58,755 nucleotides of DNA, taken from positions 1 through 58,755 of the forward strand of contig JAUCBJ010009003.1 in the NCBI GenBank assembly GCA_032718475.1, written 5' to 3'. The stretch comes from Nemertoderma westbladi (lineage: Eukaryota > Animalia > Xenacoelomorpha). A program made the translations under genes and the position numbers. The notes beneath the pieces were generated by a model. That model ran no database searches. It saw only the letters and a program-made list of their open reading frames with translations, and had not been told where the DNA came from. Shown one piece after another: positions 6,816 to 55,570 of this stretch (position 1 is the stretch's first letter; each line of letters starts with the position of its first letter).

Positions 6816-7174
6816 GACCGTGTAAAACCGTGTAAAACAAGACCGTGTAAAATTTAATTAAATTTTAAGAAAGGCTCGCAAGTCTTCCCTTCTTGTTTCT
6901 CTAGTTTTAAGTTCCACCCGACTGTACCCTGAAATCTATTCACTGGAGAAAATTTTTTAAAAATTTTTCAAATCCAAATGGATTGTCTAAAATTTCGAAA
7001 ATGTCTCAATATTGTGAGTTCCAAGTAGAATTCCATTTCTTATACCTACAAATCCCGGTCCTATGTGACACATAAGGGTACTACCCTCAATGTTCACATA
7101 TAAAGACAATGGAAATCTACCGCTGTCCTTACTACGGTGTACAGGTATGTGGAAATCTATTTGTAAACTCCTTA

Positions 7175-10100: not shown

Positions 10101-13100
10101 TAATGGAAAGTACACTCGGGGTATGGAATAATCTTCTAGCGAAGATAATTGCGCCTCCCAAGTCTTCCATAACTCCACTTGTTCGGATGAGATCGGTTCG
10201 TCCCATGTCAGTCCATCTTTCCAAATACTGCGCATATATATTATTGCTTGCAGTATTATTGGGCTGATGAAACCTAAAGGGTCAAACAGTCTGCTTAGTT
10301 TCGACAAGCAAGACCTCTTTGTCAGATAATCCCCTTCAGCGTCCAGTTTTACCTTCACTCGAAAGTTGTCTGTGTTCGGGTCCCAAAATAGTCCCAACAC
10401 CTTGGTCGTCGGCAGTGGTTCGAACTCTAAGTCAATGTCCCCACCCCCACGTTCAGTCGTTTCGAATGAATTTACTAATTCGGTGCTGTTTGAGGCGAAC
10501 TTGGTGAGGTTAAAACCTCCGCCCGCTAAGCAGTCCCGTAATTGATGTGCTACTGTGATAGCACGTTCTACTGTATCACAACTTTGTAACCCATCGTCTA
10601 CGTAAAAGTCTCGTTCTAGGATCTGGATTATCTCTGGGTCATACATATGTTTCTGGTCCCTAGCGGTCTGCTTTAGGGCGTACATAGTACAGTTTGGGCT
10701 GTCTCTGGCACCGAAAACCCGAACTTGCATTTGGTAAGTCGCCGGTGGTAGACTTAAGTCTACTTCCGGGTACCAGAGGAACCTCAAACTGTCTCTGTCT
10801 CGCTCTAACGCTCGCACTTGGTGAAACATAGCTTCGACGTCACAAGTAAAGGCTACCTGGCGTTGACGGAAGCGCATAATCACCCCCATGAGATAATTAT
10901 TCATGTTTGGTCCATCCATCAACTCACTGTTGAGAGACATTCCTTCAAACAGGGCCGCGCAGTCGTTAACTACGCGTACTTTATCAGGTTTGTCGGGGTC
11001 TCTCACGTAGTGATGTGGCAAATAGTATGTCTGGTCTGTCACAATCTCTGGGTTTGTCATCCTGATAGCGTACCCTTTTGTCAAATACGTCTCCATCTGA
11101 GTATTGTACTGCAGATGGGCTTTCTCGTCTTTCAATAAACGTTGTCGTATTGAGTGTAGACGTCTTAAGGCTAGCGGATAATTATTGATAAGTTTAGGGC
11201 TTTGGCTACGCCATAGCATCCCTACCTCATAATGTCCGTCTTTCGTCTGGCGGATAGTATCTTCCATGATCTTCAAAGATTGTTTCTCTTGTTCCGACAT
11301 ACACGGTTCGTAACTACCGGGTTCTGCTGTATCTTGTTCTAACCACCTGATAGTTTTCTCTGTTAATTCTTTGTCTAGTTCAGCTTGTTCCACTTGACAA
11401 TTCTTTAATGTGTCGACATCGATATCGACGGGCATCGTTAATGTTATTGTAGATAGACTCGCAAGCCTTCCGGCGTTATCATCTGTCGTCGATGGAACCT
11501 CCGCTTGACTCGTCTTCTTCTCACGCTCTATACTAACCTTATGGACAGGTTGCTTTCTGTGACTTATCGTATTCGCTACACACGTCGTACCTGTAACGTT
11601 GTCGTGTTTTGTCGAACGTAGTGTAGTATAGTCTATGTCAGGTGAAAAGGAATGAATCGAAGTTGTAGTTAGTAAACTACATGTACTTTGTACATCGTCT
11701 TCCTCATCACTTATATCCAGTGTGCGCACAGGCGCTCGAGTATACCACCCTATCGGAGTTCTACAGGCGTAAGCGTTTCCCGCTACGACTACCGATGGTC
11801 TGGTTTCCCACACTTGATGTAGGTTGAATTGGTCCGTCCCGATCAGCATTGCTACCGACCTATAGTTGACAGGACATTCAGGTACACCAAGGTGTCTGAA
11901 ATACTTACGGTCCTCTAGGGATTGCTCCGGCACTGGACCCAGTAGGTTACTAAAGTCCTTGGTGGCCGCAAAAGTCAAATCCTTAAAGGGTAACAAAGAC
12001 CTCTCCTTTTCGCTATGTTGCGATTTCGGAAGAAGAGTGTCCAAGTTTAACTTAACTCGTGTCACTGGTATTGCACGTTGTCCATGCATACTACTCACAG
12101 TGTACTTAACGTGCTTACCTTGTCTAAGGCCCGTCACAACGTCAGCTACCTTCTCATCCACGTAGCTGTGAGATGAGGCTGAATCTATGATAGCGTAGAT
12201 CCTTTTGCTCCCTTTGGTGCCAGTGATCTTAATAGGAATTACGCTGAAACCTTTTAGTTGATCAGGCGTCAGAAGAGCGATCGATGGTTGTTCGTCTTCA
12301 TCCGAATATATGTCTTCGTCTTCAGATTCTTCTCCAGAAGAACCGGATTGTTCTGGGAAACAATCCCAAATATGTGTCACAAAGGTTGGCGTTGTTCTCG
12401 ATTAGCGTGTTTTGTATGCGCTATTGCATTTTGCTGCAGCTTCCGGGTGTTCCCTGGTGAAGCGTTTGGTCGGCGTATGACTGTCTGTGTGGAGCAGACC
12501 GTCATGGTTGCGTCCACAGTAAGGACAGGTGTCCGTATTTGGGCAGTCCTTACGGACATGTCCATGTTGTGTACACCGCCAACAAGAATCTAACGGTCTT
12601 ATTTGAAGCCGTCGTTCCTCTGAGTTTAATTCACGGAATAGTCGACATCCCTTTAAGTTGTGGCTAGTATGTCGCTTACCAATCCGTTCGCAATATTGGC
12701 AACCGCTGAAGTCGGCAGTTAGTTGTTGTCTGGTCTGTTTGGTCCCTATAGGTGCAGACACTTTACTACCGTCTGAAAATTGTCGGGTTTCGGTCGGTGT
12801 AGCGTAGGTGACCGTCTTTGTGGATGTCGTTGGTGGTTTCTGTCTGTTTGATGAAGGTAGGGTGATTCCTTCGGCTACGATGTGTTGGTCCGTGTAGTTC
12901 GAACGAGTCTCCACTACTGCCTCTCTAGATATTAATAAGTACACATCTTCTAGTTTTAAGAATCCACCTCTCTCTTCCCGCTGATATTCGATTTTTCGCC
13001 ACTCCCGACGAAGTCGATGGTGCAATCTTCCTATTATTTTCAATAGGACTGTGGGAGTGTTCGCGTAGTCAAGTTGTCCAATTGAGCGTAGTGTAGTAAT

Positions 13101-15916
13101 GGCGTTTTTAATCTCGTCAGCCAATTTCAGTAAGTCAACGGGTTTTGTAATAGCCCCCCCCTTACAGAGTTCTTCTATCACTGACTTAGCCATACTTACG
13201 GTGCCTCCGTAAATCGATGTTAAGCGATCGTACGCTAATTCGAAGGCATCTGGTACACCGACAAAAGTCTCCGCTAGACGTTTCGGTTCTCCCGTCAGCG
13301 TTTGTAGCAGGTAGTTGAACTTTTCTCTCGATGTAAAAGCACACACAGCAATCTGAGATTCAATGTAGTCTACGAATGTTTAGAATGTTTAGAATGTTTA
13401 GAGTTACTGGAAAACTTAGGTGGTTGTTGCACCGGTAGTCCTTGTCTCGCTGCGAATTTCGCTATTTCTTCGGCAACGTTCAAAGTTCCGCGTCCTTGGT
13501 TGGCAACCTGTTTGATGTTCTCCCTTCTTGGCGCTTTTCTTTGATACGATGTATTCCTCAAAGGTGTCGGTCTTTGCTGAATGTTCGGGTGTCTAGAGTG
13601 TTCGAATTCGGTGTTTTTCGAACTATCGGTTTGAACTTCCTCTAAACGTTCCTCGATCTGGGCCAACTTGTTGACAACTGGTGTCAGAATGTCGGCGAAT
13701 TGTTGTGTACTGATTGCGTCTGTTGGTTGTAACGCCTTTTGTGTTGGTGTATTCTGTGGAGGATTGTCGATAAAGGAGTTATCTGAACGCTCACGTTTAC
13801 ATTCGTCGGCCGCTCCTGTTCTAAATACCTCGCGTTCCGGGTAATCCGACTCGCTTGAAGTACTACTGTCACCTGGATACGGTGGTCGACGTGCTCGTGT
13901 CCGTTGCGTCGTCCGAATTCTAACGTTTCGCTTCGGAACATCGTCTACTGGTCTCTGTTGTTCGGTAGGCTCGCAGGTCTTCCTCGAAGTCGTAGATTGC
14001 AATGTAAACTGGTTAAACGATCGCGTATCCACTGGTCTCCGTTGTTCGGTAGGCTCACAGGTCTTCCTCGAAGTCGTAGATTGTGATGTAAACTGATTAA
14101 ACGGTCGCGTATCCACTGGTCTCCGTTGTTCGGTAGGCTCGCAGGTCTTCCTCGAAGTCGTAGATTGCGATGTAAACTGAACCGGTGGTCGAGTAACAGC
14201 GTTTGAATCCAAAGGCCTTGTTGGCCTAAACGTCATTGGGTAAGCGTAGTGTGTAACAGGTTTTGGCGTCAGAGGTGGACTCACCTGTTTAGTCGTCAGT
14301 AATACAGGTTCGACTAATAAACTACTACGATCTGTAATCGGTGGGTTACTTACCTTGACTTTCGGAATAGGCGACGACGTTGCTCTTGGCGGTGTAAACT
14401 CGTCCGGAATAACAAACCTGTGTTCCGTCGCACCATGGATAGGAGAAATGTTACTACTACCCGCAATCGAAACAGGTTCCTTAGTCGTAACCGGTGCAAA
14501 CATATGAGTTACCTGTGGGAATCGTTGACACAAGTCCTTTACTAATTGTCGTTCCCGTCCGGGTGCTCCTACGCTTCCTTCCTTCTTCCGTTCCTGAATT
14601 TGGCGATGTCTTACCTCTATCTGGTCCAAGTCATGTCCGTCTCGAGATCTCATCGATCGATCGCGGGCTTGTAGATCCAGATCTTCCTTGGCGTTGGCTA
14701 ATTCTCTCGCCTTCCTCCCGAGTTCGAAATGAAGTTTAACTTCCTTCTCGCGTTGTTCCGTCTGTCGTTGTTGCGCCTCGAACTCTGCTTGTCGTATAGC
14801 TGACTGAGCCTTTATTTGCCGTGTTTTCATTTCGGTTCTCGCTTCTGAAGCTAACCTTTGTCGCTCTAACTCGGCCGCAGCTGTTCGTTGCGCTAACTCG
14901 GCCGCTGCTGCTTGTTGTGCAATGTCCAATTCTAACCTTTCCATCTCAGCCGCTTCCAACTCGGCTTGTTCTTGCAGATGGGAGATTCTTGCTATATTTG
15001 CAACGCGTAGCTTCTCTTCCTCTGCAGCTGCTTGTAGCATTAGAAGTTGAGTTTGTTCCTCCCACTCCTGTTGTTGTCTGTAGAGCTGTTGTTGTCGAGC
15101 AATTTCTGATGTAGCCATACTTCCCTCGCCGATTTCGCTACGAATACTCACCAGAGATTGATCCAGTATTCCCGGTGCCGATTCGATTCGTACGGGTGAA
15201 GTTTCCCTCGTATATTCCGGTACGGTTTCCGAATCGCCGACGTCTTCGCCGCACATACGTAAGTGGTCCGTCAGATGTTTCAATTGTCCATCCAGTCGGT
15301 ACAGTTCCTGTTCTTCCTCGGGCTGTAATAATTCGTCCGAAACTGACTCACCTAACAACTGGTCCGCTTGTTCCTGTTGTATGTGTCTAATCGTCGACTT
15401 AAACTGAATCAGTTTCTCTCTAGCGATCATTAGTTTCTCGAGGATTCTAAGTTGAGTATCCATGTCCTGTCTCTGTCTAGCTAGATCTTGTAGGCCAACT
15501 AGATTATCTACGGACTTATATACTTTACTCTGTACTCTAACCTGGAGGGTGTAGAATTCGAATCGAGACATCGGAGCGGTCAACCCGTCTAATATGCGTT
15601 GGCCTTCTCCAATACTCCTGGTAATATGCGCCATATAACCACCGACGCTCCTAACAACGCTTTCCTGACTTCCTACTGAACTTACCATGTCCGTTTCCCT
15701 ATATCTAGGTTGCGGAACAGTTAGAAAGTCCTCGGTCCTGCCGTCGCCTCGTACTACGGCATCCGGTACTCCCGTTGGATGTACTGGTGACGCACACGGT
15801 GTAGGTTCGGTAGGCTCGCGAGTCTTCCCCTGTTGTTCTTCCGCTGCTGACTTATCCGCGTCACATGAGTCATAGTCGGTTTGTGTATTTTTCGTATAGT
15901 CTTGTTTGTCACTCAT
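7175..15916 (-). pseudogene. BEL gag-pol of copy B, originally one ORF, now with 2 frameshifts and 2 nonsense codons
   Basis: Frameshift at ~13375-13400 ((gaatgttta)x3 replacing WHT); in-frame TAA at 12402-12404 (GAA in copy A); in-frame TAG at 9516-9518; +1 frameshift at ~8735. Confidence 0.9.
9085..9440 (-). repeat. In-frame ~183-bp (61-aa) duplication between RNase H and integrase in copy B
   Basis: ggccgctccaatag at 9094 and 9277; built from the same D/P/S-rich subunits as the copy A repeats. Confidence 0.85.
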
Positions 15917-16007
15917 TTCGGTAGTTGTAAGTCAAGTAAAGTGAGTGTCAAAGTATCAAACTTACCGTATTTTATCTAAACGGCTGAACGGTACTAATTA
16001 CAGTCTT

Positions 16008-16140
16008 ATAAAATTAGCCTACCGGCCGATTTTATAGCAGATGGATAAAATTAGCCTAAACGGCCAATTTTACAGCAAATAAATGTCACGGAATAAGTAT
16101 ATAATAAAATTAGCCTAGCGGCCAATTTTATAACAAATAA
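16008..16140. repeat. Three short direct repeats in the BEL 5' leader
   Basis: taaaattagccta..cggcc(g/a)atttta..ca.at occurs three times. Confidence 0.7.
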
Positions 16141-16839
16141 ATCAGATAACGATATGCGTTATCAAAAGGTAAATTAAATACAATAATACGGACTAATTCA
16201 GCAATGAACAAAGAAATCATACGGAATGCATAAATACTTGAGACAGTGGAACCCACAATAATTTTAACTAATACGGTAATGCCTAACTTATTTATGCAAC
16301 TTTTCGAACTCACCCACTCCAATAATTCTCCAGAAAAACAGATTCCCAGATACAAACCGGACGTGAACCTTTCCGTTTTTAACGTTGCGGACGAAACGCG
16401 ATTTTCCCAACCAAAGTTGTTGAGTTATCTATCTCCCAAACTTGCTAAACACGGTCTTGCTCCCGTTACAGTCTAGAAATGAGTTCTGAATCCTGAAAAA
16501 CAAAAGAGTTAGGTTTTACTTTTCGAAAATTTTGTACCGGTACAATATGGTATTTAAACCCTTTTAAACACCGGTATTCAATTCCAAAATATTTTACACG
16601 CGGTTCAAATCAAATTTTTATTTCAAAAAATTAGCTCTTAGCTAATCAAATTCAAATTTTTACCTCAAAATACAGAATTTTCAAATAACTTTAGTCCTAC
16701 CGAACCGTAGTTCAGTAAAACATATTCCTACTAATTGAAGAGATACGCCTATTCCTACTATTGGAAGAGACGGTAACAATACCTGCAATATCTTACTGTA
16801 AAGTTTGTAAATCAAATCATAAATCCGACCTTCTCACCA

Positions 16840-17625
16840 AAACAGTAAACTCTAAGTAAGCGAATATATTGCAGTATCGATCTCTTATAACCGGTGAGGC
16901 AGAAAACAGTCTACGAGCAGACAAACTTCGATGAAACAAAATCCCGCGCAGCGAATCCTAAAATCAGGCTGACTCACTGACGGACTAAGGGGCTCGTATA
17001 CTTTGCCGCGGTGTGATTTATATGGTTGGGCAAAGGGACGCTAGCTAGGTACAGAGGCAGATATTTGGAGATGTCTAACTAGCGAGCAAAGTGCAGTAAG
17101 GACGAAAGTTAATTTTATATATTTTGAGGTGTAAATAATTTCTAACGCGCGTGTGTTAATTCTGAACGGTCAAAAGCAGTTTTGCTCCTTCACATATATA
17201 ATTACTGGGTACGGTGTGCATTTTACGAATATTCTAATTTTATAACTTGTAGGTCCAATACTCACGAATGATAAGGTTCCTTCCCCTCTTGCGTATTTCC
17301 AGGACTCAAATTCAGGCATAAGGTTAATACTACGCCCAGAATTCGGCAATTTTAGGTACCAGGTCCCTGATACTAAGAAGAGATGTGTTAGTTTACTACT
17401 GTAGGCGTACAGGTACTAATAGCTATCCTGGCTCCTATCTAGAATTTTAGTCACCCAGGTAGTCCGGGTAACTTCCTATTAGGGCGTTGGCGGGGACACG
17501 GTAGATGTTAGTATCCCTCCCGGGTTGAGATTCTTAGTATATTTCCTAAGTTCTAAACAAGTCTGCTTAGAAAGGCTTAGAACGCTTAGCAACGCTGGTG
17601 CAAAGGGTGAGTAAAGTACTTAACA
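16840..17625 (-). promoter_or_regulatory. Candidate 5' LTR of BEL copy B (boundaries uncertain)
   Basis: Minus strand begins TGTTAAG at 17625; TATA-like runs at ~17110-17200; PBS-like TTTTGGTGAGAAGGTCGGAT at ~16823-16842. No partner LTR in the window and no canonical CA end. Confidence 0.35.
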
Positions 17626-19080
17626 AATTTTCCAATTTCATAAAAATGACATTGCAAGTTTATAATGTTTAGTAAGTTGTTGCTATGTGACTGACAAGTA
17701 TTACAGGATATATAAACGTGCTTTATATGTAACCGATGATATATGCAAGCACTTTGCAAGTGTAATGAACTAATAACATGCGCATTACAAATCTAGCATA
17801 TATCTGTAACCTATATATTCCCGGCACTAGTTCGAACCTGCGTCGCAAATTTTTTTAAGTAATAATTATTTTTGAAAAATAAATGTTGTGGGAAGAGTGG
17901 CGGTTAGCTTTCGAATGAAAGTAAATGATGACCCCCCCCCCCCCCCTCTGAGACAAGAGAAACAACACACGGAACATCATAGTGAGTGATGTACTGTATG
18001 CTATGCACTTGTGTTTGGTTTGATACTCTTTGTTGCAACCCCCCCCCCCCCTCCCCTATGACATATGTAAACAAATTAATACCGAGACTCAATGTTTTTA
18101 ATATAAACAACATATAAACAAACATATTATTACTGTACGTTACATACACATCAGATCTAAACGCGTAAATACTGTAGGTCTACACTAAAACACAGTTACG
18201 TCGGAAAAATTTATCCAAAAAGTTCAAAAATGGTATTCCTCATTTCTGTTTATGCAATAATACTATTTAATTCAAATTTGTAATCTTATCAAGCGCTACA
18301 GTAGATTACGATTTGAGCACGAAATAAAATAGAAAATTTATCACCCGTCATATAAAGTTACCAATAACATCATCATATTATATTATAACTATATGGATTG
18401 CAGCAATTGTATTTTGAACATTAGGGTTAACTTTTCCCAACGAAAATAGTGGTTCAATGAATACATTAAAATTAGAAATACATACACAGAAACATTAAAA
18501 ATGATTTTAGACATGTTCAAAATCATTAATACAAGGAATTCCAAATAATGAAGTGCTACGGCTACCATTCATAGTACTGGTATTGTAGATATAGATATAA
18601 GGTTATTATTGAGATTAGATGCAGGATAACTAGCGGTTCATTGTGGTGGTCCAGTTGAATTTTAGAGCATTTTTTTTACAATTTCGTTACCGGTACTACC
18701 CGGTGTCTGTGAGAAAAGACGGTTTCCTTGGGAAAATGTCTGGAAAACACAGAATAAAAAATCAGGGAAAATATTTTTAAAGTAGGCCTACTTTTTTATC
18801 TTCATTTTGTTATTTTTTATTGGGAGCTGCCGCTCCCATACCCCAGACCCCCGTTTAGTACAATGAAACAGCTTTAACAATAATATAATATAAAGCAAAA
18901 TTACAATTAATATTATACTCTGAGAGTTTTACAAGAACCTACAGTAACTATAATGCCAAATAGATAACACAGATACAAATAAGAGAAAGCACAACACAAC
19001 ATAGTTTACAGATTCAGTTTACAGCGTCAGACGAGTGGAGTGATCGGCAATCCATCCTCCGTACCCAGACCACTGTGCCA

Positions 19081-19580
19081 CTATAGCCTCGACTCCCTGA
19101 TGCAATGAGAAGCCCCTCGAACTATGGCGAACTGCACACGGCGGCGAACCCACTCCATGACGGTGCTATAAGGTCTGTCCCAGTTGTGGTGTAACCTATC
19201 AGCGAAGATACTCGGGAGCTTGTTGGCATGCGGTGCCAGAACTCCATTCTACGGAGAGACAAGAGACTACGAAGGGTGCAAAAGTCCGCTCTCCTCTGTC
19301 TCGCTGGTTCCACATATAGTGCGGTTTTAGCGTCCTCCACAGATTCTAGGACCCTCATCGGGGGGCGTCCCGCATATGGCTCGGCGTCATCGGTTTACGA
19401 CCCTGATATCTAACAACGCCTGAGTCTGCCGGTTGAATGCCCCCCGAACTCATACATCACACCAAGTCCTGCCTCTCCACTTAATCCAGGCTGGTCTCTG
19501 ACTATGGGTTCCGACTGTCACGTTTCGTGGTCCAAATGCTAGAGAGGCCAGATCCCCAACAACATCACGGAGTTCAATAT
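19081..19580 (-). mobile_element. Degenerate 3' fragment of a CRE-clade-like non-LTR retrotransposon (restriction-like endonuclease domain)
   Basis: Frameshifted translation EPIVR..VRGAFNRQTQALLDIRVVN..DAEPYAGRPPMRVLESVEDAKTALY..RRADF/APFVVS..NWDRPYSTVMEWVRRRVQFAIVRGASHCIRESR*. Matches the remembered C-terminus of CRE-type ORFs. Confidence 0.7.
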
Positions 19581-20160
19581 ATGTCTTTGGATTATGAGGC
19601 CTTTTTTAAATTCCAATTCTTCCAAAGTCAATTGTTATTAATCAAATTTCACTAACATTCAAATAACTTGAATTTTAATTGTATCAATTAGGCATTAATT
19701 CAATTAAATTGTCAATTAGCAACAATCGGACAATTAGGCAAACCATAAATATTTCATTAACGATATAGACAGTACAAACAAAACAAATAAACAATAAACA
19801 AAACAAGTATACAAAAGGCACTAAACAATTAAAGATTACAAAACTCTATAAATAATAACAAAATTAAAGAGTACAAAATACAATAAACAATTGAATTGAA
19901 GTAAACAAACAGCAATAAAGCTACCAGTATAAATTAAAGTAACAAAACGCTATACACTATTTATTAAAGTAAGCAAAACTCATTAAACAATTAAACGTAA
20001 ATAAAGAAAACTCAATAAACGCAACTCTGCAGTTCAGCAGTAGGCCTACTGACCACAAAATGACTGAATGAGTCATTTATTGGCGGTGGATCATGTGACT
20101 GATTTTTAATTGCAATGCGTGTCAAGCACCACTAAAGTTCTTATTAAATTTTTGTCAAGT

Positions 20161-20300
20161 TATAAAGTCAACGAAAGTATGTTCTAGGTATACAAAATTT
20201 GTTAAAAATTTGCTAAGTGCATTGCATGATTATAAAGTCATCGAAATTATATTCTAGGTATACAAAATTTGTTAAGAATTTGTTAAGTGCATTGCATGAT
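20161..20300. repeat. ~70-bp direct tandem duplication
   Basis: tataaagtca.cgaaa.tat.ttctaggtatacaaaatttgttaa.aatttg.taagtgcattgcatgat twice. Confidence 0.85.
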
Positions 20301-21430
20301 AAGTGCCCACCCAAATATTTCTTAAAATCTATACTGTACTTGGCAAGTATTTTTTAATTCCTTAACAAATAATGCAAAATGTGGTAATTGTAAAAATTTA
20401 GTAAAATTATCATGCCAGTACCTTGCCATTAGGTAGTACTTTACTAATATGATAAGATTCTCAACCCGGGCTGATAGCCTCAATTTATTTGCGCCTAGTG
20501 TAAACTGCCCTACCGCCTGAACGGTACAATCCCAATTCAGGTGAAAACACAGCAACCCCCCTAGCCTACAAGTTCTAATGCAATGGACACCGTTGCACGG
20601 CAAATAGTCACAGACGCACCTGTACTTAGCAAGAGTTAAGCGTACAGTTTGCTGCACCCTAACCAATGTGTATGCCTTGTACCGGTGTGCCTACGTCCTA
20701 TCTGCGTACTAGTATCTGCCTGCGCTCTCCCCCCCCCCCCCCCCCGTAGGAATATGAAGGTCTACTGCGGTTTTTCCTGAATCAAGACAGTACAGTCCCT
20801 TTTGATGTAATTTTAGGCTTACAGCGTGTCACTACGTCTACCTTTTGATCTTTTGGTCTTATACTTAGGTAGCAAGGATCGAACGCTGTCTAACCTTTCA
20901 GGCGATGGGCGAATAACTCTAAATGGTATTGCGGGTTGTCTCTCGTCTACATTCCCGTGATGTTCCCGTTCATTGCTGCGGCCCGATCTCTAGCCGGCCA
21001 TCCTGTCCCTGAGTTTGTTCACCGTAGTGAATCCATAGTAAAACAGATAGAAAAGCTGAGAGAATATTCTGACTTTATTACAGAAGATACAATTATAATA
21101 CAATGTAATCTGAGAATAAACTAAGCACGACAGAATATTGATAAGATAATCTGAGAAAGATTGAGATATAAGATATAGTGTTGAGAGATTGATAACTAAT
21201 GAACAAATCGCACCTTTATATAGCAAATTTGTGCCGCAATCAATCGAGAAAATTCTCGATTGTTCTATGGGTTCTAACGGGGTTTTAAAGATAGCTATTG
21301 GTCCAGCTAATATATAACTTGCACGACATTGGTTACAATCAAATAACTACAGTCTCATTGGTACAGATAAATGCAATTAATTTGTAGCGGTTAATTTAAA
21401 TGAGTTGAAATTCTGTACAAAAAATAATTC

Positions 21431-21505
21431 GCACTTACTAGGATTCGAACTCAATACCTACTACACATATAATTTCCAACGCTCTACCGACTGAGCTACT
21501 GAACC
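21431..21505 (-). mobile_element. tRNA-derived SINE head or tRNA pseudogene
   Basis: Minus strand GGTTCAGTAGCTCAGTCGGTAGAGCG..GAGTTCGAATCC carries A and B boxes; acceptor and anticodon stems do not pair. Confidence 0.6.
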
Positions 21506-21631
21506 ACTTGACCGATAGATGTACAAATGATAGAACCAATACGAATGAGAACTTAAAGCAATCTTTACAAAGTTAATCCGAATAAAATAAAATTTTGAAA
21601 ATCCACGGCATTTAGGGAATATAATTCTATA

Positions 21632-24600
21632 TAATTATTTAATGTTGCTACTAATTATGTAAGTTTGTAATTATTTAATGTTGCTACTAATTATGTAAGT
21701 TTGTAATTATTTAATGTTGCTACTAATTATGTAAGTTTGTAATCATTTAATGTTGCTACTAATTATGTAAGTTTGTAATCATTTAATGTTGCTACTAATT
21801 ATGTAAGTTTGTAATTATTTAATGTTGCTACTAATTATGTAAGTTTGTAATTATTTAATGTTGCTACTAATTATGTAAGTTTGTAATTATTTAATGTTGC
21901 TACTAAGTATGTAAGTCTAAGTATGTAAGTTTGTAATCATTTAATGTTACTACTACGTATGTAAGTTTGTAACATGTAATGTTGATACTAATTATGTAAG
22001 TTTGTAATCATTTAATGTGCTACTAATTATGTAAGTTTGTAATCATTTAATGTTACTACTACGTATGTAAGTTTGTAATCATGTAATGTTGATACTAATT
22101 ATGTAAGTTTGTAATAATTTAATGTTGCTACTAATTATGTAAGTTTGTAATTATTTAATGTTGCTACTAATTATGTAAGTTTGTAATTATTTATTTAATG
22201 TTGCTACTAATTATGTAAGTTTGTAATCATTTAATGTTGGTACTACGTATGTAAGTTTGTAATCATGTAATGTTGATACTAATTATGTAAGTTTGTAATT
22301 ATTTAATGTTGCTACTAATTATGTAAGTTTGTAATTATTTAATGTTGCTACTAATTATGTAAGTTTGTAATTATTTATTTAATGTTGCTACTAATTATGT
22401 AAGTTTGTAATCTTTTAATGTTGGTACTAATTATGTAAGTTTGTAATCATTTAATGTTACTAACTAATTATGTAAGTTTGTAATCATTTAATGTTACTAC
22501 TACGTATGTAAGTTTGTAATCATGTAATGTTGATACTAATTATGTAAGTTTGTAATCATTTAATGTTACTACTACGTATGTAAGTTTGTAATCATGTAAT
22601 GTTGATACTAATTATGTAAGTTTGTTTAAAGGCGGGGTAGCTCATTTGGTTGAGCGCCGGGCCTGCAATCTAATGGTTGTAGGTTCAGCCCCGCCAGGGT
22701 CCACTCAGCCTTTCATCCACTGGGGTCGATAAAATGAGTACCAGTTAAATAACTGGGAGCAAAACTTGGGATAGGAGTAGCGCCCACCCCTACCCTCGGG
22801 TAGCAGCTATCGAAAGAGGAGCCTTCGGGTCGCCTCCGGCTTCGGCCGACTGTTTGCTTTGCTTTTTGCTTTTTGCTTTTACTACGTATGTAAGTTTGTA
22901 ATCATGTAATGTTGATACTAATTATGTAAGTTTGTAATCATTTAATGTTGCTACTAATTATGTAAGTTTGTAATCTTTTAATGTTGCTACTAAGTATGTA
23001 AGTTTGTAATCATGTAATGTTGCTACTAATTATGTAAGTTTGTAATTATTTAATGTTGCTACTAAGTATGTAAGTTTGTAATCATGTAATGTTGATACTA
23101 ATTATGTAAGTTTGTACTCATTTAATGTTGATACTAATTTATGTAAGTTTGTAATCATTTAATGTTGATACTAAGTATGTAAGTTTGTAATCATTTAATG
23201 TTGCTACTAATTATATAAGTTTGTAATCATTTAATGTTACTACTAATTATGTAAGTTTGTAATCATTTAATGTTGCTACTAATTATGTAAGTTTGTAATC
23301 ATTTAATGTTACTACTACGTATGTAAGTTTGTAATCATGTAATGTTGATACTAATTATATAAGTTTGTAATCATTTAATGTTGCTACTAATTATATAAGT
23401 TTGAAATCATTTAATGTTACTACTACGTATGTAAGTTTGTAATCATGTAATGTTGCTACTAATTATGTAAGTTTGTAATCATTTAATGTTGCTACTAATT
23501 ATGTAAGTTTGTAATCATTTAATGTTACTACTACGTATGTAAGTTTGTAATCATGTAATGTTGATACTAATTATGTAAGTTTGTAATTATTTAATGTTGC
23601 TACTAATTATGTAAGTTTGTAATTATTTAATGTTGCTACTAATTATGTAAGTTTGTAATTATTTAATGTTGCTACTAATTATGTAAGTTTGTAATCTTTT
23701 AATGTTGGTACTAATTATGTAAGTTTGTAATCATTTAATGTTACTAACTAATTATGTAAGTTTGTAATCATTTAATGTTACTACTACGTATGTAAGTTTG
23801 TAATCATGTATTGTTGATACTAATTATGTAAGTTTGTAATCATTTAATGTTACTACTACGTATGTAAGTTTGTAATCATGTAATGTTGATACTAATTATG
23901 TAAGTTTGTAATCATTTAATGTTACTACTACGTATGTAAGTTTGTAATCATGTAATGTTGATACTAATTATGTAAGTTTGTAATCATTTAATGTTGCTAC
24001 TAATTATGTAAGTTTGTTATCTTTTAATGTTGCTACTAAGTATGTAAGTTTGTAATCATGTAATGTTGCTACTCATTATGTAAGTTTGTAATCTTTTAAT
24101 GTTGCTACTAAGTATGTAAGTTTGTAATCATGTAATGTTGATACTAATTATGTAAGTTTGTACTCATTTAATGTTGATACTAATTTATGTAGGTTTGTAA
24201 TCATTTAATGTTGATACTAAGTATGTAAGTTTGTAATCATTTAATGTTGCTACTAATTATATAAGTTTGTAATCATTTAATGTTGCTACTAATTATATAA
24301 GTTTGTAATCATTTAATGTTACTACTACGTATGTAAGTTTGTAATCATTTAATGTTACTACTACGTATGTAAGTTTGTAATCATGTAATGTTGATACTAA
24401 TTATATAAGTTTGTAATCATTTAATGTTGCTACTAATTATATAAGTTTGTAATCATTTAATGTTACTACTACGTATGTAAGTTTGTAATCATGTAATGTT
24501 GCTACTAATTATGTAAGTTTGTAATCTTTTAATGTTGCTACTAATTATGTAAGTTTGTAATTATTTAATGTTGCTACTAATTATGTAAGTTTGTAATTAT

Positions 24601-24740
24601 TTAATGTTGCTACTAAGTATGTAAGTTTGTAATCATGTAATGTTGCTACTAATTATGTAAGTTTGTAATCATTTAATGTTGCTACTAATTATGTAAGTTT
24701 GTAATCATTTAATGTTGCTACTAAGTATGTAAGTTTGTAA
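21632..24740 (+). repeat. 36-bp tandem array (~80 units), consensus aattatttaatgttgctactaattat-GTAAGT-ttgt; probably derived from the preceding ACE exon end plus donor
   Basis: Direct inspection; interrupted by a SINE at 22631; ends ~100 nt before the acceptor at 24839. Confidence 0.95.
22631..22880 (+). mobile_element. tRNA-derived SINE inserted in the 36-bp array
   Basis: Head GGCGGGGTAGCTCATTTGGTTGAGCG..GGTTCAGCCCC; central CCACTCAGCCTTTCATCC..GGGGTCGATAAAATGAGTACCAG (resembles, from memory, the Meta-type SINE domain); GC-rich hairpin region; (TGCTTT)n tail. Confidence 0.85.
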
Positions 24741-24839
24741 ACCATATTGTTACTATACTCTGCGTATTAGTTTGAAAATTGTTATTGATGCTTCTATTAA
24801 AGTAAGTTTGTACTTATTAACACACTTGTATTATTATAG

Positions 24840-24988
24840 GCCGGGACTTACACACTGAAACCGCTGAAAACGTGGGCTGACTATTGGATTTCTTTGTACG
24901 ACGAGGAAGATCTAGAAAATACAGTTATGAGTCTCTGGGAGGATATTAAACCCGCATACCTCGAACTACATGCCTATACTCGGAATAA
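24840..24988 (+). CDS. ACE: ACE-like (peptidase M2) gene, first exon visible in the window
   Basis: tatag|GCC..AATAA|gtaagt; AGTYTLKPLKTWADYWISLYDEEDLENTVMSLWEDIKPAYLELHAYTRN aligns with ACE ..GDSWRSMYE..LQPLYLNLHAYVR; phase 2 joins 43422. Confidence 0.92.
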
Positions 24989-27900
24989 GTAAGTACCTCG
25001 AACTTAATGCCTATACTCGGAATAAGTAAGTACCTCGAACTATATTCCTTTACTCGGAATAAGTAAGTACCTCGAACTACATGCCTATACTCGGAATAAG
25101 TAAGTACCTCGAACTAGATGCCTATACTCGGAATAAGTAAGTACCTCGAACTACATGCCTATACTCGGAATAAGTAAGTATACCTCGAACTACATGCCTA
25201 TACTCGGAATAAGTAAGAACCTCGAACTACATGCCTATACTCGGAATAAGTAAGTACCTCGAACTATATTCCTTTACTCGGAATAAGTAAGTACCTCGAA
25301 CTACATGCCTATACTCGGAATAAGTAAGTACCTCGAACTACATGCACGTACTCGGAATAAGTAAGTACCTCGAACTACATGCCTATACTCGGAATAAGTA
25401 AGTACCTCGAACTACATGCCTATACTCGGAATAAGTAAGTACCTCGAACTATATTCCTTTACTCTGAATAAGTAAGTACCTCGAACTACATGCCCATACT
25501 CGGAATAAGTAAGTACCTCGAACTACATGCCTATACTCGGAATAAGTAAGTACCTCGAACTACATGCCTATACTCGGAATAAGTAAGTATACCTCGAACT
25601 ACATGCCTATACTCGGAATAAGTAAGAACCTCGAACTACATGCCTATACTCGGAATAAGTAAGTACCTCGAACTACATGCCTATACTCGGAATAAGTAAG
25701 TACCTCGAACTAGATGCCTATACTCGGAATAAGTAAGTACCTCGAACTACATGCCTATACTCGGAATAAGTAAGTATACCTCGAACTACATGCCTATACT
25801 CGGAATAAGTAAGAACCTCGAACTACATGCCTATACTCGGAATAAGTAAGTACCTCGAACTTAAGTAAGTACCTCGAACTACATGCCTATACTCGGAATA
25901 AGTAAGTATACCTCGAACTACATGCCTATACTCGGAATAAGTAAGAACCTCGAACTACATGCCTATACTCGGAATAAGTAAGAACCTCGAACTACATGCC
26001 TATACTCGGAATAAGTAAGTACCTCGAACTATATTCCTTTACTCGGAATAAGTAAGTACCTCGAACTACATGCCTATACTCGGAATAAGTAAGAACCTCG
26101 AACTACATGCCTATACTCGGAATAAGTAAGAACCTCGAACTACATGCCTATACTCGGAATAAGTAAGTACCTCGAACTATATTCCTTTACTCGGAATAAG
26201 TAAGTACCTCGAACTACATGCCTATACTCGGAATAAGTAAGTACCTCGAACTACATTCCTATACTCGGAATAAGTAAGTACCTCGAACTACAGCCTTTAC
26301 TCTGAATAAGTAAGTACGTCGAACTACATTCCTTTACTCTGAATAAGTAAGTACCTCGAACTACATTCCTATACTCGGAATAAGTAAGTACCTCGAACTA
26401 CATTCCTTTACTCGGAATAAGTAAGTACCTCGAACTATATTCCTTTACTCGGAATAAGTAAGTACCTCGAACTACATTCCTTTACTCGGAATAAGTAAGT
26501 ACCTCGAACTATATTCCTTTATTCTGAATAAGTAAGTACGTCGAACTACATTCCTTTACTCTGAATAAGTAAGTACCTCGAACTACATGCCTATACTCGG
26601 AATAAGTAAGTACCTCGAACTACATGCCCATACTCGGAATAAGTAAGTACCTCGAACTACATGCCTATACTCGGAATAAGTAAGTACCTCGAACTACATG
26701 CCCATACTCGGAATAAGTAAGTACCTCGAACTACATGCCTATACTCGGAATAAGTAAGTACCTCGAACTACATGCTTATACTCGGAATAAGTAAGTACCT
26801 CGAACTACATTCCTATACTCGGAATAAGTAAGTACCTCGAACTATATTCCTTTACTCTGAATAAGTAAGTACGTCGAACTACATTCCTTTACTCTGAATA
26901 AGTAAGTACCTCGAACTACATGCCTATACTCGGAATAAGTAAGTACCTCGAACTACATGCCTATACTCGGAATAAGTAAGTACCTCGAACTACAGCCTTT
27001 ACTCGGAATAAGTAAGTACCTCGAACTACATTCCTTTACTCGGAATAAGTACGTACCTCGAACTGTATTCCTATACTCGGAATAAGTAAGTACCTCGAAC
27101 TACATGCCTATACTCGGAATAAGTAAGTACCTCGAACTATATTCCTTTACTCTGAATAAGTAAGTACGTCGAACTACATTCCTTTACTCTGAATAAGTAA
27201 GTACGTCGAACTACATTCCTTTACTCTGAATAAGTAAGTACGTCGAACTACATTCCTTTACTCTGAATAAGTAAGTACCTCGAACTACAGCCTTTACTCG
27301 GAATAAGTAAGTACCTCGAACTACATTCCTTTACTCGGAATAAGTACGTACCTCGAACTGTATTCCTATACTCGGAATAAGTAAGTACCTCGAACTACAT
27401 GCCTATACTCGGAATAAGTAAGTACCTCGAACTATATTCCTTTACTCTGAATAAGTAAGTACGTCGAACTATATTCCTTTACTCTGAATAAGTAAGTACC
27501 TCGAACTACATGCCTATACTCGGAATAAGTAAGTACCTCGAACTACAGCCTTTACTCGGAATAAGTAAGTACCTCGAACTACATGCCTATACTCGGAATA
27601 AGTAAGTACCTCGAACTACAGCCTTTACTCGGAATAAGTAAGTACCTCGAACTACATTCCTTTACTCGGAATAAGTACGTACCTCGAACTGTATTCCTAT
27701 ACTCGGAATAAGTAAGTACCTCGAACTACATGCCTATACTCGGAATAAGTAAGTACCTCGAACTATATTCCTTTACTCTGAATAAGTAAGTACGTCGAAC
27801 TATATTCCTTTACTCTGAATAAGTAAGTACGTCGAACTATATTCCTTTACTCTGAATAAGTAAGTACCTCGAACTACAGCCTTTACTCGGAATAGTAAGT

Positions 27901-30900
27901 ACCTCGAACTACATGCCTATACTCGGAATAAGTAAGTACCTCGAACTACAGCCTTTACTCGGAATAAGTAAGTACCTCGAACTACATTCCTTTACTCGGA
28001 ATAAGTACGTACCTCGAACTGTATTCCTATACTCGGAATAAGTAAGTACCTCGAACTACATGCCTATACTCGGAATAAGTAAGTACCTCGAACTATATTC
28101 CTTTACTCTGAATAAGTAAGTACGTCGAACTACATTCCTTTACTCTGAATAAGTAAGTACGTCGAACTACATTCCTTTACTCTGAATAAGTAAGTACGTC
28201 GAACTACATTCCTATACTCGGAATAAGTAAGTACCTCGAACTACATGCCTATACTCGGAATAAGTAAGTACCTCGAACTACAGCCTTTACTCGGAATAAG
28301 TAAGTACCTCGAACTACATGCCTATACTCGGAATAAGTAAGTACCTCGAACTACAGCCTTTACTCGGAATAAGTAAGTACCTCGAACTACATTCCTTTAC
28401 TCGGAATAAGTACGTACCTCGAACTGTATTCCTATACTCGGAATAAGTAAGTACCTCGAACTACATGCCTATACTCGGAATAAGTAAGTACCTCGAACTA
28501 CAGCCTTTACTCGGAATAAGTAAGTACCTCGAACTACATGCCTATACTCGGAATAAGTAAGTACCTCGAACTACAGCCTTTACTCGGAATAAGTAAGTAC
28601 CTCGAACTACATTCCTTTACTCGGAATAAGTACGTACCTCGAACTGTATTCCTATACTCGGAATAAGTAAGTACCTCGAACTACATGCCTATACTCGGAA
28701 TAAGTAAGTACCTCGAACTATATTCCTTTACTCTGAATAAGTAAGTACGTCGAACTACATTCCTTTACTCTGAATAAGTAAGTACGTCGAACTACATTCC
28801 TTTACTCGGAATAAGTACGTACCTCGAACTGTATTCCTATACTCGGAATAAGTAAGTACCTCGAACTACATGCCTATACTCGGAATAAGTAAGTACCTCG
28901 AACTATATTCCTTTACTCTGAATAAGTAAGTACGTCGAACTACATGCCTATACTCGGAATAAGTAAGTACCTCTAACTACAGCCTTTACTCGGAATAAGT
29001 AAGTACCTCGAACTACATGCCTATACTCGGAATAAGTAAGTACCTCGAACTACAGCCTTTACTCGGAATAAGTAAGTACCTCGAACTACATGCCTATACT
29101 CGGAATAAGTAAGTACCTCGAATTACAGCCTTTACTCGGAATAAGTAAGTACCTCGAACTACATTCCTTTACTCGGAATAAGTACGTACCTCGAACTGTA
29201 TTCCTATACTCGGAATAAGTAAGTACCTCGAACTACATGCCTATACTCGGAATAAGTAAGTACCTCGAACTATATTCCTTTACTCTGAATAAGTAAGTAC
29301 GTCGAACTACATTCCTTTACTCTGAATAAGTAAGTACGTCGAACTACATTCCTTTACTCTGAATAAGTAAGTACGTCGAACTACATTCCTTTACTCTGAA
29401 TAAGTAAGTACCTCGAACTACAGCCTTTACTCGGAATAAGTAAGTACCTCGAACTACATTCCTTTACTCGGAATAAGTACGTACCTCGAACTGTATTCCT
29501 ATACTCGGAATAAGTAAGTACCTCGAACTACATGCCTATACTCGGAATAAGTAAGTACGTCGAACTACATTCCTTTACTCTGAATAAGTAAGTACCTCGA
29601 ACTACATGCCTATACTCGGAATAAGTAAGTACCTCGAACTACAGCCTTTACTCGGAATAAGTAAGTACCTCGAACTACATTCCTTTACTCGGAATAAGTA
29701 AGTACCTCGAACTACATTCCTTTACTCGGAATAAGTAAGTACCTCGAACTACATTCCTATACTCGGAATAAGTAAGTACCTCGAACTACATGCCTTTACT
29801 CGGAATAAGTACGTACCTCGAACTGTATTCCTATACTCGGAATAAGTAAGTACCTCGAACTACATGCCTATACTCGGAATAAGTAAGTACCTCGAACTAC
29901 AGCCTTTACTCGGAATAAGTAAGTACCTCGAACTACATTCCTTTACTCGGAATAAGTAAGTACCTCGAACTACATTCCTTTACTCGGAATAAGTACGTAC
30001 CTCGAACTGTATTCCTATACTCGGAATAAGTAAGTACCTCGAACTACATGCCTATACTCGGAATAAGTAAGTACCTCGAACTACATTCCTTTACTCGGAA
30101 TAAGTAAGTACCTCGAACTACATTCCTTTACTCGGAATAGGTAAGTACCTCGAACTACATTCCTATACTCGGAATAAGTAAGTACCTCGAACTACATGCC
30201 TTTACTCGGAATAAGTACGTACCTCGAACTGTATTCCTATACTCGGAATAAGTAAGTACCTCGAACTACATGCCTATACTCGGAATAAGTAAGTACCTCG
30301 AACTACAGCCTTTACTCGGAATAAGTAAGTACCTCGAACTACATTCCTTTACTCGGAATAAGTAAGTACCTCGAACTACATTCCTTTACTCGGAATAAGT
30401 ACGTACCTCGAACTGTATTCCTATACTCGGAATAAGTAAGTACCTCGAACTACATGCCTTTACTCGGAATAAGTAAGTACCTCGAACTACATTCCTTTAC
30501 TCGGAATAAGTAAGTACCTCGAACTACATTCCTTTACTCTGAATAAGTACGTACCTCGAACTGTATTCCTATACTCGGAATAAGTAAGTACCTCGAACTA
30601 CATGCCTATACTCGGAATAAGTAAGTACCTCGAACTATATTCCTTTACTCTGAATAAGTAAGTACGTCGAACTACATTCCTTTACTCTGAATAAGTAAGT
30701 ACCTCGAACTACATGCCCATACTCGGAATAAGTAAGTACCTCGAACTACATGCCTATACTCGGAATAAGTAAGTACCTCGAACTACATGCTTATACTCGG
30801 AATAAGTAAGTACCTCGAACTACATTCCTATACTCGGAATAAGTAAGTACCTCGAACTATATTCCTTTACTCTGAATAAGTAAGTACGTCGAACTACATT

Positions 30901-33900
30901 CCTTTACTCTGAATAAGTAAGTACCTCGAACTACATGCCTATACTCGGAATAAGTAAGTACCTCGAACTACATGCCTATACTCGGAATAAGTAAGTACCT
31001 CGAACTACAGCCTTTACTCGGAATAAGTAAGTACCTCGAACTACATTCCTTTACTCGGAATAAGTAAGTACCTCGAATTACATTCCTTTACTCTGAATAA
31101 GTAAGTACCTCGAACTACATGCCTATACTCGGAATAAGTAAGTACCTCGAACTGTATTCCTATACTCGGAATAAGTAAGTACCTCGAACTACATGCCTAT
31201 ACTCGGAATAAGTAAGTACCTCGAACTACAGCCTTTACTCGGAATAAGTAAGTACCTCGAACTACATGCCTATACTCGGAATAAGTAAGTACCTCGAACT
31301 ATATTCCTTTACTCTGAATAAGTAAGTACCTCGAACTACATTCCTTTACTCTGAATAAGTAAGTACCTCGAACTACATTCCTTTACTCGGAATAAGTAAG
31401 TACCTCGAACTACATTCCTTTACTCTGAATAAGTAAGTACCTCGAACTACATGCCTATACTCGGAATAAGTAAGTACCTCGAACTACATGCCTATACTCG
31501 GAATAAGTAAGTACCTCGAACTACAGCCTTTACTCGGAATAAGTAAGTACCTCGAACTACATGCCTATACTCGGAATAAGTAAGTACCTCTATCTACATT
31601 CCTTTACTCGGAATAAGTAAGTACCTCGAACTATATTCCTATACTCGGAATAAGTAAGAACCTCGAACTACATGCCTATACTCGGAATAAGTAAGTACCT
31701 CGAACTACATTCCTTTACTCGGAATAAGTAAGTACCTCGAACTACATTCCTTTACTCTGAATAAGTAAGTACCTCGAACTACATGCCTATACTCGGAATA
31801 AGTACGTACCTCGAACTGTATTCCTATACTCGGAATAAGTAAGTACCTCGAACTACATGCCTATACTCGGAATAAGTAAGTACCTCGAACTACAGCCTTT
31901 ACTCGGAATAAGTAAGTACCTCGAACTACATTCCTTTACTCGGAATAAGTAAGTACCTCGAACTACATTCCTTTACTCTGAATAAGTAAGTATCTCGAAC
32001 TACATGCCTATACTCGGAATAAGTAAGTACCTCGAACTACAGCCTTTACTCGGAATAAGTAAGTACCTCGAACTACATGCCTATACTCGGAATAAGTAAG
32101 TACCTCTATCTACATTCCTTTACTCGGAATAGGTATGTACATCGAACTATATTCCTTTACTCTGAATAAGTAAGTACGTCGAACTACATTCCTTTACTCT
32201 GAATAAGTAAGTACCTCGAACTACATGCCTATACTCGGAATAAGTAAGTACGTCGAACTATACAGCCTTTACTCGGAATGAGTAAGTACCTCGAACTACA
32301 TGCCTATACTCGGAATAAGTAAGTACCTCGAACTACATGCCTATACTCGGAATAAGTAAGTACCTCGAACTACATGCCTATACTCGGAATAAGTACGTAC
32401 CTCGAACTGTATTCCTATACTCGGAATAAGTAAGTACCTCAAACTACATGCCTATACTCGGAATAAGTAAGTACCTCGAACTACATGCCTATACTCGGAA
32501 TAAGTAAGTACCTCGAACTACATGCCTATACTCGGAATAAGTACGTACCTCGAACTGTATTCCTATACTCGGAATAAGTAAGTACCTCAAACTACATGCC
32601 TATACTCGGAATAAGTAAGTACCTCGAACTACATGCCCATACTCGGAATAAGTAAGTACCTCGAACTACATGCCCATACTCGGAATAAGTAAGTACCTCG
32701 AACTACATGCCTATACTCGGAATAAGTAAGTATACCTCGAACTACATGCCTATACTCGGAATAAGTAAGAACCTCGAACTACATGCCTATACTCGGAATA
32801 AGTAAGTACCTCGAACTACAGCCTATACTCGGAATAAGTAAGTACGTCGAACTACATTCCTATACTCGGAATAAATAAGTACCTCGAACTAGATGCCTAT
32901 ACTCGGAATAAGTACGTACCTCGAACTACATTCCTATACTCGGAATAAGTAAGTACCTCGAACTACATTCCTATACTCGGAATAAGTAAGTACGTCGAAC
33001 TACGTTCCTATACTCGGAATAAGTAAGTACGTCGAACTACGTTCCTATACTCTGAATAAGTAAGTACCTCGAACTATACAGCCTTTACTCGGAATGAGTA
33101 AGTATCTCGAACTACATTCCTTTACTCGGAATAAGTAAGTGCCTTGAACTACATGCCTATACTCGGAATAAGTAAGTACCTCGAACTACATGCCTATACT
33201 CGGAATAAGTAAGTACCTCGAACTATACAGCCTTTACTCGGAATGAGTAAGTATCTCGAACTACATTCCTTTACTCGGAATAAGTAAGTACCTTGAACTA
33301 CATGCCTATACTCGGAATAAGTAAGTACCTCGAACTACATGCCTATACTCGGAATAAGTAAGTACCTCGAACTAGATGCCTATACTCGGAATAAGTACGT
33401 ACCTCGAACTACATTCCTATACTCGGAATAAGTAAGTACCTCGAACTACATTCCTATACTCGGAATAAGTAAGTACGTCGAACTACAGCCTATACCCGGA
33501 ATAAGTAAGTACCTCGAACTACATTCCTTTACTCGGAATAAGTAAGTACCTCGAACTACATGCCTATACTCGGAATAAGTAAGTACCTCGAACTACATGC
33601 CTATACCCGGAATAAGTAAGTACCTCGAACTACATTCCTTTACTCGGAATAAGTAAGTACCTCGAACTACATGCCTATACTCGGAATAAGTAAGTACCTC
33701 GAACTACATTCCTATACTCGGAATAAGTAAGTACCTCGAACTATACAGCCTTTACTCGGAATGAGTAAGTACCTCGAACTATATTCCTTTATTCTGAATA
33801 AGTAAGTACGTCGAACTACATGCCTATACCCGGAATAAGTAAGTACCTCGAACTACATTCCTTTACTCGGAATAAGTAAGTACCTCGAACTACATGCCTA

Positions 33901-41888: not shown

Positions 41889-42969
41889 AGAGGATCAAAG
41901 AGAGGGAACCCCCCCCCCCCCCCAACCCGAAGGCGGACACAGGATTGATGGAATTTGTGTTTTAAAAGTAATATGTTATATTTATTTTTAATATAACACA
42001 AAATACAACTGAAAGCGATTCACAAATACAAACATCACAAATTTCTAGCAAAAATAATTAAAGATCGCATATTATTTAATTTATATTTTTAATACAAATT
42101 TAATTTAACTAACAAAGAAATCAATAAACTCGGTTATTGTTAACATGTTAAACCCTTAAAGTAATATATTAAATATTTTAGGCGTGGAGGCGACCCAATT
42201 TGTAAGAAATATAAAACTTACCGTATGCCGATAGTATTGATACTGGTATATTAATTTATCATGTCAACGCCTCAACGAAATTATTTAGCTAATTATTCTA
42301 AAGAATCATGATTAAGTACTCGGCCAATCATTTTGCAAGCTAAACACAATAACCAAGCTGGCTTATTAGTCTGGCTCATTACAATGCTGCCTTTGAGTAG
42401 TGATGAGGTGGTTGGACTGGTTTCCCTTGCAAGCTAGGCTAGCTGGGAAGGCTAGCCTTCCCAGCTAGGCTAGCAAGCATGCCAAAGGAATGAGGGAGCT
42501 ATGGAAGTATTGCTGGAGACAGGGGATTTTAATAAGTTAATTACCTTTAGATCAATTAAAAACACGTTTCTTAAAGCAAATCTCTTAAACTAATTAAAAA
42601 CTATAATGGAATGGGGTATGGGAAATACAGCTGTATAATTGTTAAGTATAATTATTTAAATCTTATTCTAGAAAAAAATTTACTATCCTTTACGAGGCAG
42701 GTTGAAAATGCTGTTTTTACCCTAATCAACTTAATTAACTAATTAACTGCTATTATCTTAGCTTCTCAAAGGCCACACGGAAATTCAACTTGGAAAATTG
42801 CTAATATTTTGCCAGACTACATGTGTACCTAGTTTGGATAGATTTCATTAAGATTTGGCTGAGTTATTAACGTTTAAAATGGGACACAACAGATCGACAG
42901 AACAACAGACATACCGATTGAGTTAGTGGTACCTGTATGCTAAGCTCGCTTACTTTAGTGGCTCGCCCC
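41889..42969. other. ~1.08 kb insertion splitting the end of the 37-bp array (unclassified, probably a non-autonomous TE)
   Basis: Satellite resumes at 42970; contains a 42-bp palindrome and ends in gctcgct..gctcgccc. Confidence 0.5.
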
Positions 42970-43048
42970 ACTACATGCCTATACTCGGAATAAGTAAGTA
43001 CCTCGAACTAGATGCCTATACTCGGAATAAGTAAGTACCTCGAACTAC
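42970..43048 (+). repeat. Detached terminal ~2 units of the 37-bp satellite
   Basis: actacatgcctatactcggaataagtaagtacctcgaactagatgcc...cgaactac. Confidence 0.95.
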
Positions 43049-43421
43049 TATATTTGCAAAATGAAATAGTCATAGAAGGGGTAACGCCCCTCCCTTAACC
43101 TTATACATGAATTGTCGGTACAAGTATGTACAAGTAATCATATCCAATATACTCGCTAAAAATCAAATATAACAATTATATATTGTAATCAACTTAATTA
43201 ACTCTAAGTACAAAAATGTAATGATATTAAATTATTGAATTATTTTTAAGAAATTGATTTTATAAATTTTAACATTTTATAATAAAATTTCATACTAGAG
43301 ATCCTAAGGTAGATAAAGACTATTGTCTTCTCTATTACAATACCCAGAACAGTAATCCTATAAATTGCTCATTATATTATGACTTGTAACTGTGGTTATA
43401 TAACTTCTTTCACTTTTTTAG

Positions 43422-44187: not shown

Positions 44188-44204
44188 GTAAGTTTAATCA
44201 CAAC

Positions 44205-55569: not shown

Positions 55570-55570
55570 T

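Follow-up and report, generated by a model that had tools for sequence, protein, structure and literature searches.

An ACE gene with donor-bearing tandem arrays

The window (the whole stretch of 58,755 nucleotides of Nemertoderma westbladi DNA analysed here) carries on its forward strand exons of an ACE (peptidase M2) gene: all five exon pieces that were scanned scored above the Pfam cut-off for Peptidase_M2, and the exon near 47.3 kb holds the HESGH zinc motif. The coding exon at 24840–24988 (plus strand; Pfam PF01401, E = 2.8e-9) is entered in phase 0 and left in phase 2. The earlier note on this DNA had it start in phase 0 with A-G, and this is how it opens, after a TAG acceptor and as part of Peptidase_M2. 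In an RNA contig (see below) it is joined straight from 24988 to the next ACE exon at 43422–43553 (plus strand). Relative to other ACE domains the first of these exons has a short insertion of about six residues at 24846–24870, within TYTLKPLK, and its intron lies before A-G, whereas the apparent start of several predicted ACE fragments is within the G codon. At 47340–47470 the HESGH motif and the downstream E are intact, and the usual D after E-x-x-G is Y (ETVGY). An ACE protein of the organism itself was not found, the best of 19 matches being 35–59% identical over parts, and none of the eight candidate proteins scored in a search with the 47.25-kb exon.

The exon at 24840–24988 runs into a 37-bp tandem array made of its own end and donor (24957–41888, plus strand), which is attached to the exon and nearly identical to it. 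Among about 460 units, 423 were scored, of which 101 are identical to the exon over 32 bases and 375 agree at 27 or more. It is the first donor of this array that the RNA contig uses. The array measures 16.9 kb, its unit consists of the exon end (YLELHAYTRN) followed by GTAAG, with 397 intact donor contexts, and a two-unit piece has been split off at 42970–43048.

A 36-bp array of exon-end-like units with splice donors

Upstream of the exon at 24840–24988 lies a second, head-to-tail tandem array within the gene (plus strand), with a period of 36, in two blocks that flank an insert at about 22626–22880. Its unit joins bases that are probably derived from an exon end to a GTAAGT donor. A pattern scan returned 80 donor-like sites, spanning 21659 to 24802, with GTAAGT intact in 72 of them; 79 lie within 21632–24740, and a further donor-like site at 21911 was missed by the pattern. 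TAT stands immediately 5′ of the donor at 79 of the 80 sites, and the AT content of the unit is about 78%. The unit had been described as encoding LFNVATNY up to a phase-0 GTAAGT. Such units exist, but the 24 bases 5′ of the donor encode this peptide at 14 of the 80 sites only, and SFNVATNY (13), SFNVTTTY (13) and SCNVDTNY (12) are about as common; in nearly all units an in-frame TAA directly precedes these codons. The ratio of depth on this array to that on the 37-bp array differs more than 10-fold among runs, contig depth not being copy number. The insert that breaks the array (plus strand), seen by eye, is presumably SINE-like, judging by sight; Rfam, searched over 16000–25100, and ARAGORN, run across the whole window, gave no match.

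At its left edge the array begins in mid-unit with no exon attached, as had been noticed, and the base just before it is the last one of a high-copy interspersed repeat (20471–21631, no strand assigned), recognised by depth and by contig exits. When contigs from four public runs were mapped over 20310–21740, summed contig depth was near 1e5 over about 20471–21631 in three DNA runs, compared with a few thousand within the array, and contigs from other copies of the repeat diverged exactly at 21631, from which we conclude that the array starts where the repeat ends. A further 280 loose ends of these contigs fell outside the listing, and an exon–array junction may lie among them. No terminal inverted partner of this left-edge element was found. 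By sight, a tRNA-like stretch with A and B boxes lies within it on the minus strand, at about 21435–21500.

At its right edge the array does extend to the 24740 given for it, but decayed units run on to about 24820. There are roughly two such units (24741–24820, plus strand), and from their final donor-like GTAAGT, at 24802, it is 38 bases to the next exon. The copy at 24783–24818 matches the unit at 29 of 36 positions, and the 111 bases from the last intact donor (24729) to the acceptor align as decayed units with a score of 91 (best of 2000 shuffles, 84), so that decayed units reach to within about 20 bases of the acceptor. We rejected 24771–24801 as a genuine small exon (LKIVIDASIK), since its score against the ACE profile described below is −0.4, it aligns as a decayed unit and it is absent from both RNA branches listed at 24840. 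That 24751–24834 has no cover in any run carries no evidential weight. In each of the three DNA runs (X1, X3 and X4) a contig placed at 24658 joins 48 array bases to a flank missing from the window, and there is therefore at least one further array boundary elsewhere; three loose-end sequences were sought in the window, and none occurs there even with 3 mismatches allowed.

The upstream ACE exon in RNA

To the left of 24855, tblastn with 7 ACE homologs out of 48 proteins, the arrays being masked, gave no match at E values up to 1, so that no upstream ACE exon was found within the window. A contig of 2346 bases from the fourth run (X2) covers 24840–24988 and continues directly at 43422, spanning an 18.4-kb GT-AG intron, and the intronic parts of both arrays are without cover in this run. 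Because of this precise join and the lack of cover on both arrays we take X2, which the tool labelled ‘DNA?’, to be RNA; all the RNA evidence thus comes from one run, in the form of contigs, and contig assemblies may drop rare variants.

Two branches joining 24840 were listed in X2. Branch (a), of 685 bases, ends in V-E-L-S-N-V-A-A-E-K and continues with A-G at 24840. Its VELSNVAAEK fits the ACE motif VELSNKAARLNG, with a profile score of 21.8 as against 5.5 for the unit, a value reached by none of 4905 background peptides (the profile was built from 52 segments of 34 of the 48 proteins, of which 30 were left after removal of near-duplicates and 28 after 2 more had been dropped as misaligned). 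The normal message thus runs from an authentic upstream donor, with the NVAAEK exon joined to 24840 and 24988 to 43422, in this one run. The earlier note had predicted a spliced LFNVATNY|AG junction; this junction is absent from the two branches listed, and the exon ends in NVAAEK instead. Its placing of the parent exon outside the window was borne out, the exon sequence being absent from the window and the tblastn result blank. So was the ACE likeness of LFNVATNY, which goes beyond chance: among the 4905 window peptides encoded before a GT, 4 match or beat it with the 28-segment profile.

The 36-bp unit is a diverged relative of the upstream exon end

With the register set by the donor, the unit agrees with the end of branch (a) at 21 of 29 bases, which none of 500,000 composition-keeping shuffles achieved. 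Over 24 bases the agreement is 17, the best of the 36 rotations (the next best gives 12) and more than at any of 76,876 other 24-mers in the window (best 16); the similarity extends to −29 rather than stopping at −24. Its strong part lies at −29 to −10, where 17 of 20 bases match, as opposed to 4 of 9 at −9 to −1, a chance level (28,810 of 200,000 shuffles). The codons for L, N, V and A are identical in unit and exon. Three codons, those for E, S and the second A, give the commonest residue of the ACE family in the exon but not in the unit, which makes the repeat the derived form, with the direction of change from exon to repeat. The unit is thus homologous to the end of the adjoining exon in donor register, in diverged rather than identical form. 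Could the likeness to an exon end plus donor have arisen by chance in an unrelated AT-rich satellite? The AT content of about 78% and the chance-level match of the last 9 bases would suit such an origin, but the match over 29 bases was unmatched in the shuffles although its register was preset by the donor and by the phase of the next exon, and we regard a chance origin as extremely improbable.

How far the exon-derived part of the unit reaches bears on its polarity. Bases −29 to −19 might be derived from the intron and resemble the exon by chance or through an older likeness, in which case the E and S codons drop out as evidence of polarity and the A codon alone is left; even so, the shortest parse retains a match at 13 of 18 bases (7 of 200,000 shuffles). 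On the intron-derived parse the 38-base piece before the acceptor could be the old intron.

Changes between exon and unit lie nearer the donor in tendency (5 of 9 positions as against 3 of 20; p = 0.067, not significant), and they fall on G more often than on other bases (5 of 8 as against 3 of 21; p = 0.019). This loss of G fits AT-biased drift as well as it fits selection. Selection against perfect decoy donors is possible, and the tests run do not separate it from such drift. Three authentic donors of the ACE gene are also without G at −1, and TAT|GTAAGT is for this reason not clearly a weak donor here; its copies likely remain usable. At the right edge the decayed unit has AAA before its donor, where the upstream exon has AAG and the main array TAT; it thus retains AA at −3 and −2, like the exon, as expected if the edges of an array escape homogenisation.

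These comparisons bear on a second possible parent, namely another copy of the upstream exon (duplicated, dead or alternative), already NVATNY-like when it was amplified. The uniformity of the units at diverged positions, as with the nearly invariant TAT, would be simple if the parent had them, and the predicted junction could then exist as a rare isoform of the kind that contigs drop. But neither of the two branches listed at 24840 ends in a whole unit, nearly all units have TAA opposite the codon for the conserved E, and at −3 the decayed edge unit resembles the exon more closely, suggesting that drift took place within the array. We consider a parent of this kind quite improbable.

We favour an origin of the 36-bp array by tandem duplication of the end of the upstream ACE exon together with its splice donor, followed by loss of contact and drift, and judge this to be very likely from sequence comparison. 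In the earlier note the array had been read as the amplified end and donor of the upstream exon, and the origin stands, with 21 of 29 bases in register; what the units preserve is an old copy, about 28% diverged, and not the present exon end. The 37-bp array of the next ACE intron, which has the same build and is still attached, also counts in favour, and the 36-bp array has the look of an earlier result of the process behind the 37-bp array, one that has become detached from its exon. Against this origin stand the chance-level match at −9 to −1, the flank at the sole junction between array and other sequence listed from DNA runs, which differs from the exon end, the possible intron derivation of −29 to −19, and the single run behind the RNA evidence.

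Mobile elements to the left of the array

To the left of the array, nested frames of BEL/Pao-type retrotransposons occupy 1255–15931 on the minus strand (Peptidase_A17, DUF1759, DUF5641; long repeats). The earlier note had ascribed the separation of the array from its parent exon to transposable-element insertions in 1–21.6 kb. In favour of this, the array edge is a repeat end, with the BEL/Pao elements further left; against it, the elements in 1–16 kb retain long open frames, and are hence likely too young to explain the divergence of 28% alone, so that they can account for the separation only in part, if at all. Exchange between the array and its exon, we infer, had probably ceased before the insertions in 1–16 kb. 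Between these elements and the array, an element with inverted ends lies at 17525–20466 between two copies of CCCGGG inside the high-copy repeat, and an X2 contig joins 20471 to sequence like that at about 17490–17520, consistent with a nested insertion.

A second RNA entry into the exon through bases equal to a unit end

Branch (b) is a 71-base contig of X2 that enters 24840 through 41 unaligned bases, of which 30 were displayed. The last 11 bases are identical to the end of a TKY-type unit and stop exactly where GTAAGT follows in the array, a match present at 6 of the 80 listed sites and at 7 by direct search; its chance is about 1e-5 per place, any of the 12 unit 11-mers being found at 1 of 76,914 other places. 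Since branch (b) enters through bases identical to a unit end, one array-type donor likely works, used by foreign upstream sequence, as judged from this one contig in one run. For the first 19 displayed bases the window offers no match (13 of 19 at best), and they end in what may be a TG...CA-type terminus like that of an LTR. One of the seven sites, the last intact unit end with its donor (24718–24734, plus strand), is a candidate site only, whose donor would make a 111-base GT-AG intron. Branch (b) has a TGA in the ACE frame, the ATG that straddles the joint starts a frame of just six codons, and no ATG in frame occurs until 24927; judging by the reading frame, such a message would be unable to encode full-length ACE. 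Its contig depth of 180 is of the same order as the 108 of branch (a), and contig depth does not rank expression.

On the simplest reading, a mobile element has inserted 11 bases short of an array donor, from which it is spliced to the ACE exon; the insertion would lie beyond the window in this intron, or else in another haplotype. Chimeric exons started by an LTR or transposon can use a donor in flanking DNA. Branch (b) resembles these in that foreign sequence ending in CA is followed by 11 flank bases and a splice into a host exon; it differs from them in that the donor would come from the host gene itself, as a fossil and amplified form of one of its donors.

Alternatively, branch (b) might not reflect cis-splicing from an array donor at all and might instead be a trans-spliced leader, an unrelated exon or an assembly path. 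That it is a single 71-base contig from one run, with 30 of its 41 unaligned bases displayed and the first 19 of these without a match in the window, would be compatible with such a source, but the sequence at the joint is, for 11 bases, that of an array unit end and stops exactly at the position of GTAAGT. As for a leader, trans-spliced leaders are generally known to end in G, as opposed to the T at the joint, and a full-text search with 12 letters of the branch (b) sequence found no published text printing it. We regard this alternative as unlikely.

A further possibility is that the exon behind branch (b) is the true parent of the array, the unit being its last 11 bases plus 25 bases of intron and the ACE likeness secondary. 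The exact match of all 11 bases next to the donor is what this predicts, but the 17 of 20 matches to the ACE exon at −29 to −10 would be left unexplained, most units are not of the matching TKY type, and there is the stop in the ACE frame. Such a parentage appears very improbable.

A route from exon end to detached array

Under the favoured origin from the upstream ACE exon end, the first extra copy would have arisen by slippage or unequal exchange over a 36-base step, perhaps helped by microhomology between exon and intron, and unequal crossing-over would then have amplified it. Insertions would move the array away from its exon, and concerted evolution would fix new variants within it, so that the units would become far more like each other than like the exon. 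Full-length message leaves out the entire array, being spliced from the authentic donor furthest upstream, which is also the pattern in human F7. Most likely the array is neutral repeat DNA that now and then affects splicing as a side effect. Going further, the fossil donor array might act as a landing pad, in which an inserted mobile element borrows an array donor and yields a substantial non-productive ACE transcript, the loss of AAG|GT reflects selection against decoys and the two introns represent an early and a late stage; we offer this as a tentative proposal, possible though rather doubtful.

Comparison with known exon-boundary minisatellites

Minisatellites at exon boundaries are a known kind in human and amphioxus, and the ACE array is a further case. 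The 37-bp VNTR of human F7 intron 7 is listed alongside 6-16 intron 2, CBS intron 13, lamin B2 and PDGF intron 4 in the pertinent passage of Borensztajn et al. (2006; PMC1557585). According to passages of the same paper, arrays of the F7 type mainly use the most upstream donor, with extra donors also used in 6-16 and CBS, and the pseudo-sites of F7 drew splicing only at a perfect consensus. Akin to this class as outlined there, the tandem unit of the ACE array probably spans an exon–intron boundary, and it repeats the donor. As opposed to the 5–25 units with an authentic exon end as the first unit that are given there for the F7 class, the ACE array has about 80 units, no exon attached and about 28% divergence, with a second array of about 460 units in the next intron.

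In amphioxus, ‘mirage’ minisatellites are reported in Adh3 and in the globins BflGb6 and BflGb9 (Ebner et al., 2010; PMC3087553). In the parts of that study concerned, they are described as short (3–6 units in BflGb6), adjoining their exon, evolving in concert inside with the exception of the edges, and leaving splicing undisturbed. The likeness lies in exon-boundary repeats of an invertebrate; the differences lie in the apparent detachment by mobile elements and in an RNA branch that apparently uses a repeat donor. The Rogers model, in which an intron is gained when an AG|GT site is tandemly duplicated, as given in a section of the same paper, would have a unit that is wholly coding around the present junction, whereas the 36-bp unit continues with GTAAGT and the next exon starts with GCCGGG.

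What the ACE case adds is a time series in one gene, with a young attached array of about 460 donors, ignored by RNA, beside an old detached one whose ancestry can be read only against the transcript. If branch (b) is what it seems, it would be a natural case of a detached pseudo-donor that becomes active once its upstream competitor is far away, in keeping with the F7 rule that the most upstream donor wins, which could thus be tested in an invertebrate.

Other features downstream in the gene

A probable ACE exon at 44039–44188 was without a tblastn match among the 7 homologs; its end and donor (AATGTTGAT|GTAAGTTT) are somewhat like a shortened 36-bp unit (22 of 36 positions, within the range of chance). 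Further intronic tandem arrays lie at 44213–45033 (14/15-bp units, with an inverted block at 44911–45033) and at 46615–47065 (11/22-bp units). The last ACE intron contains a gypsy-like retrotransposon on the minus strand (50660–55810; RVT_1, rve) with two LTRs and several frameshifts or stops; the end of the left-edge repeat of the 36-bp array (21608–21621, minus strand) has a 14-base word common to both of these LTRs (at 50753 and 55667). The ACE gene ends in a transmembrane tail at 56956–57257.
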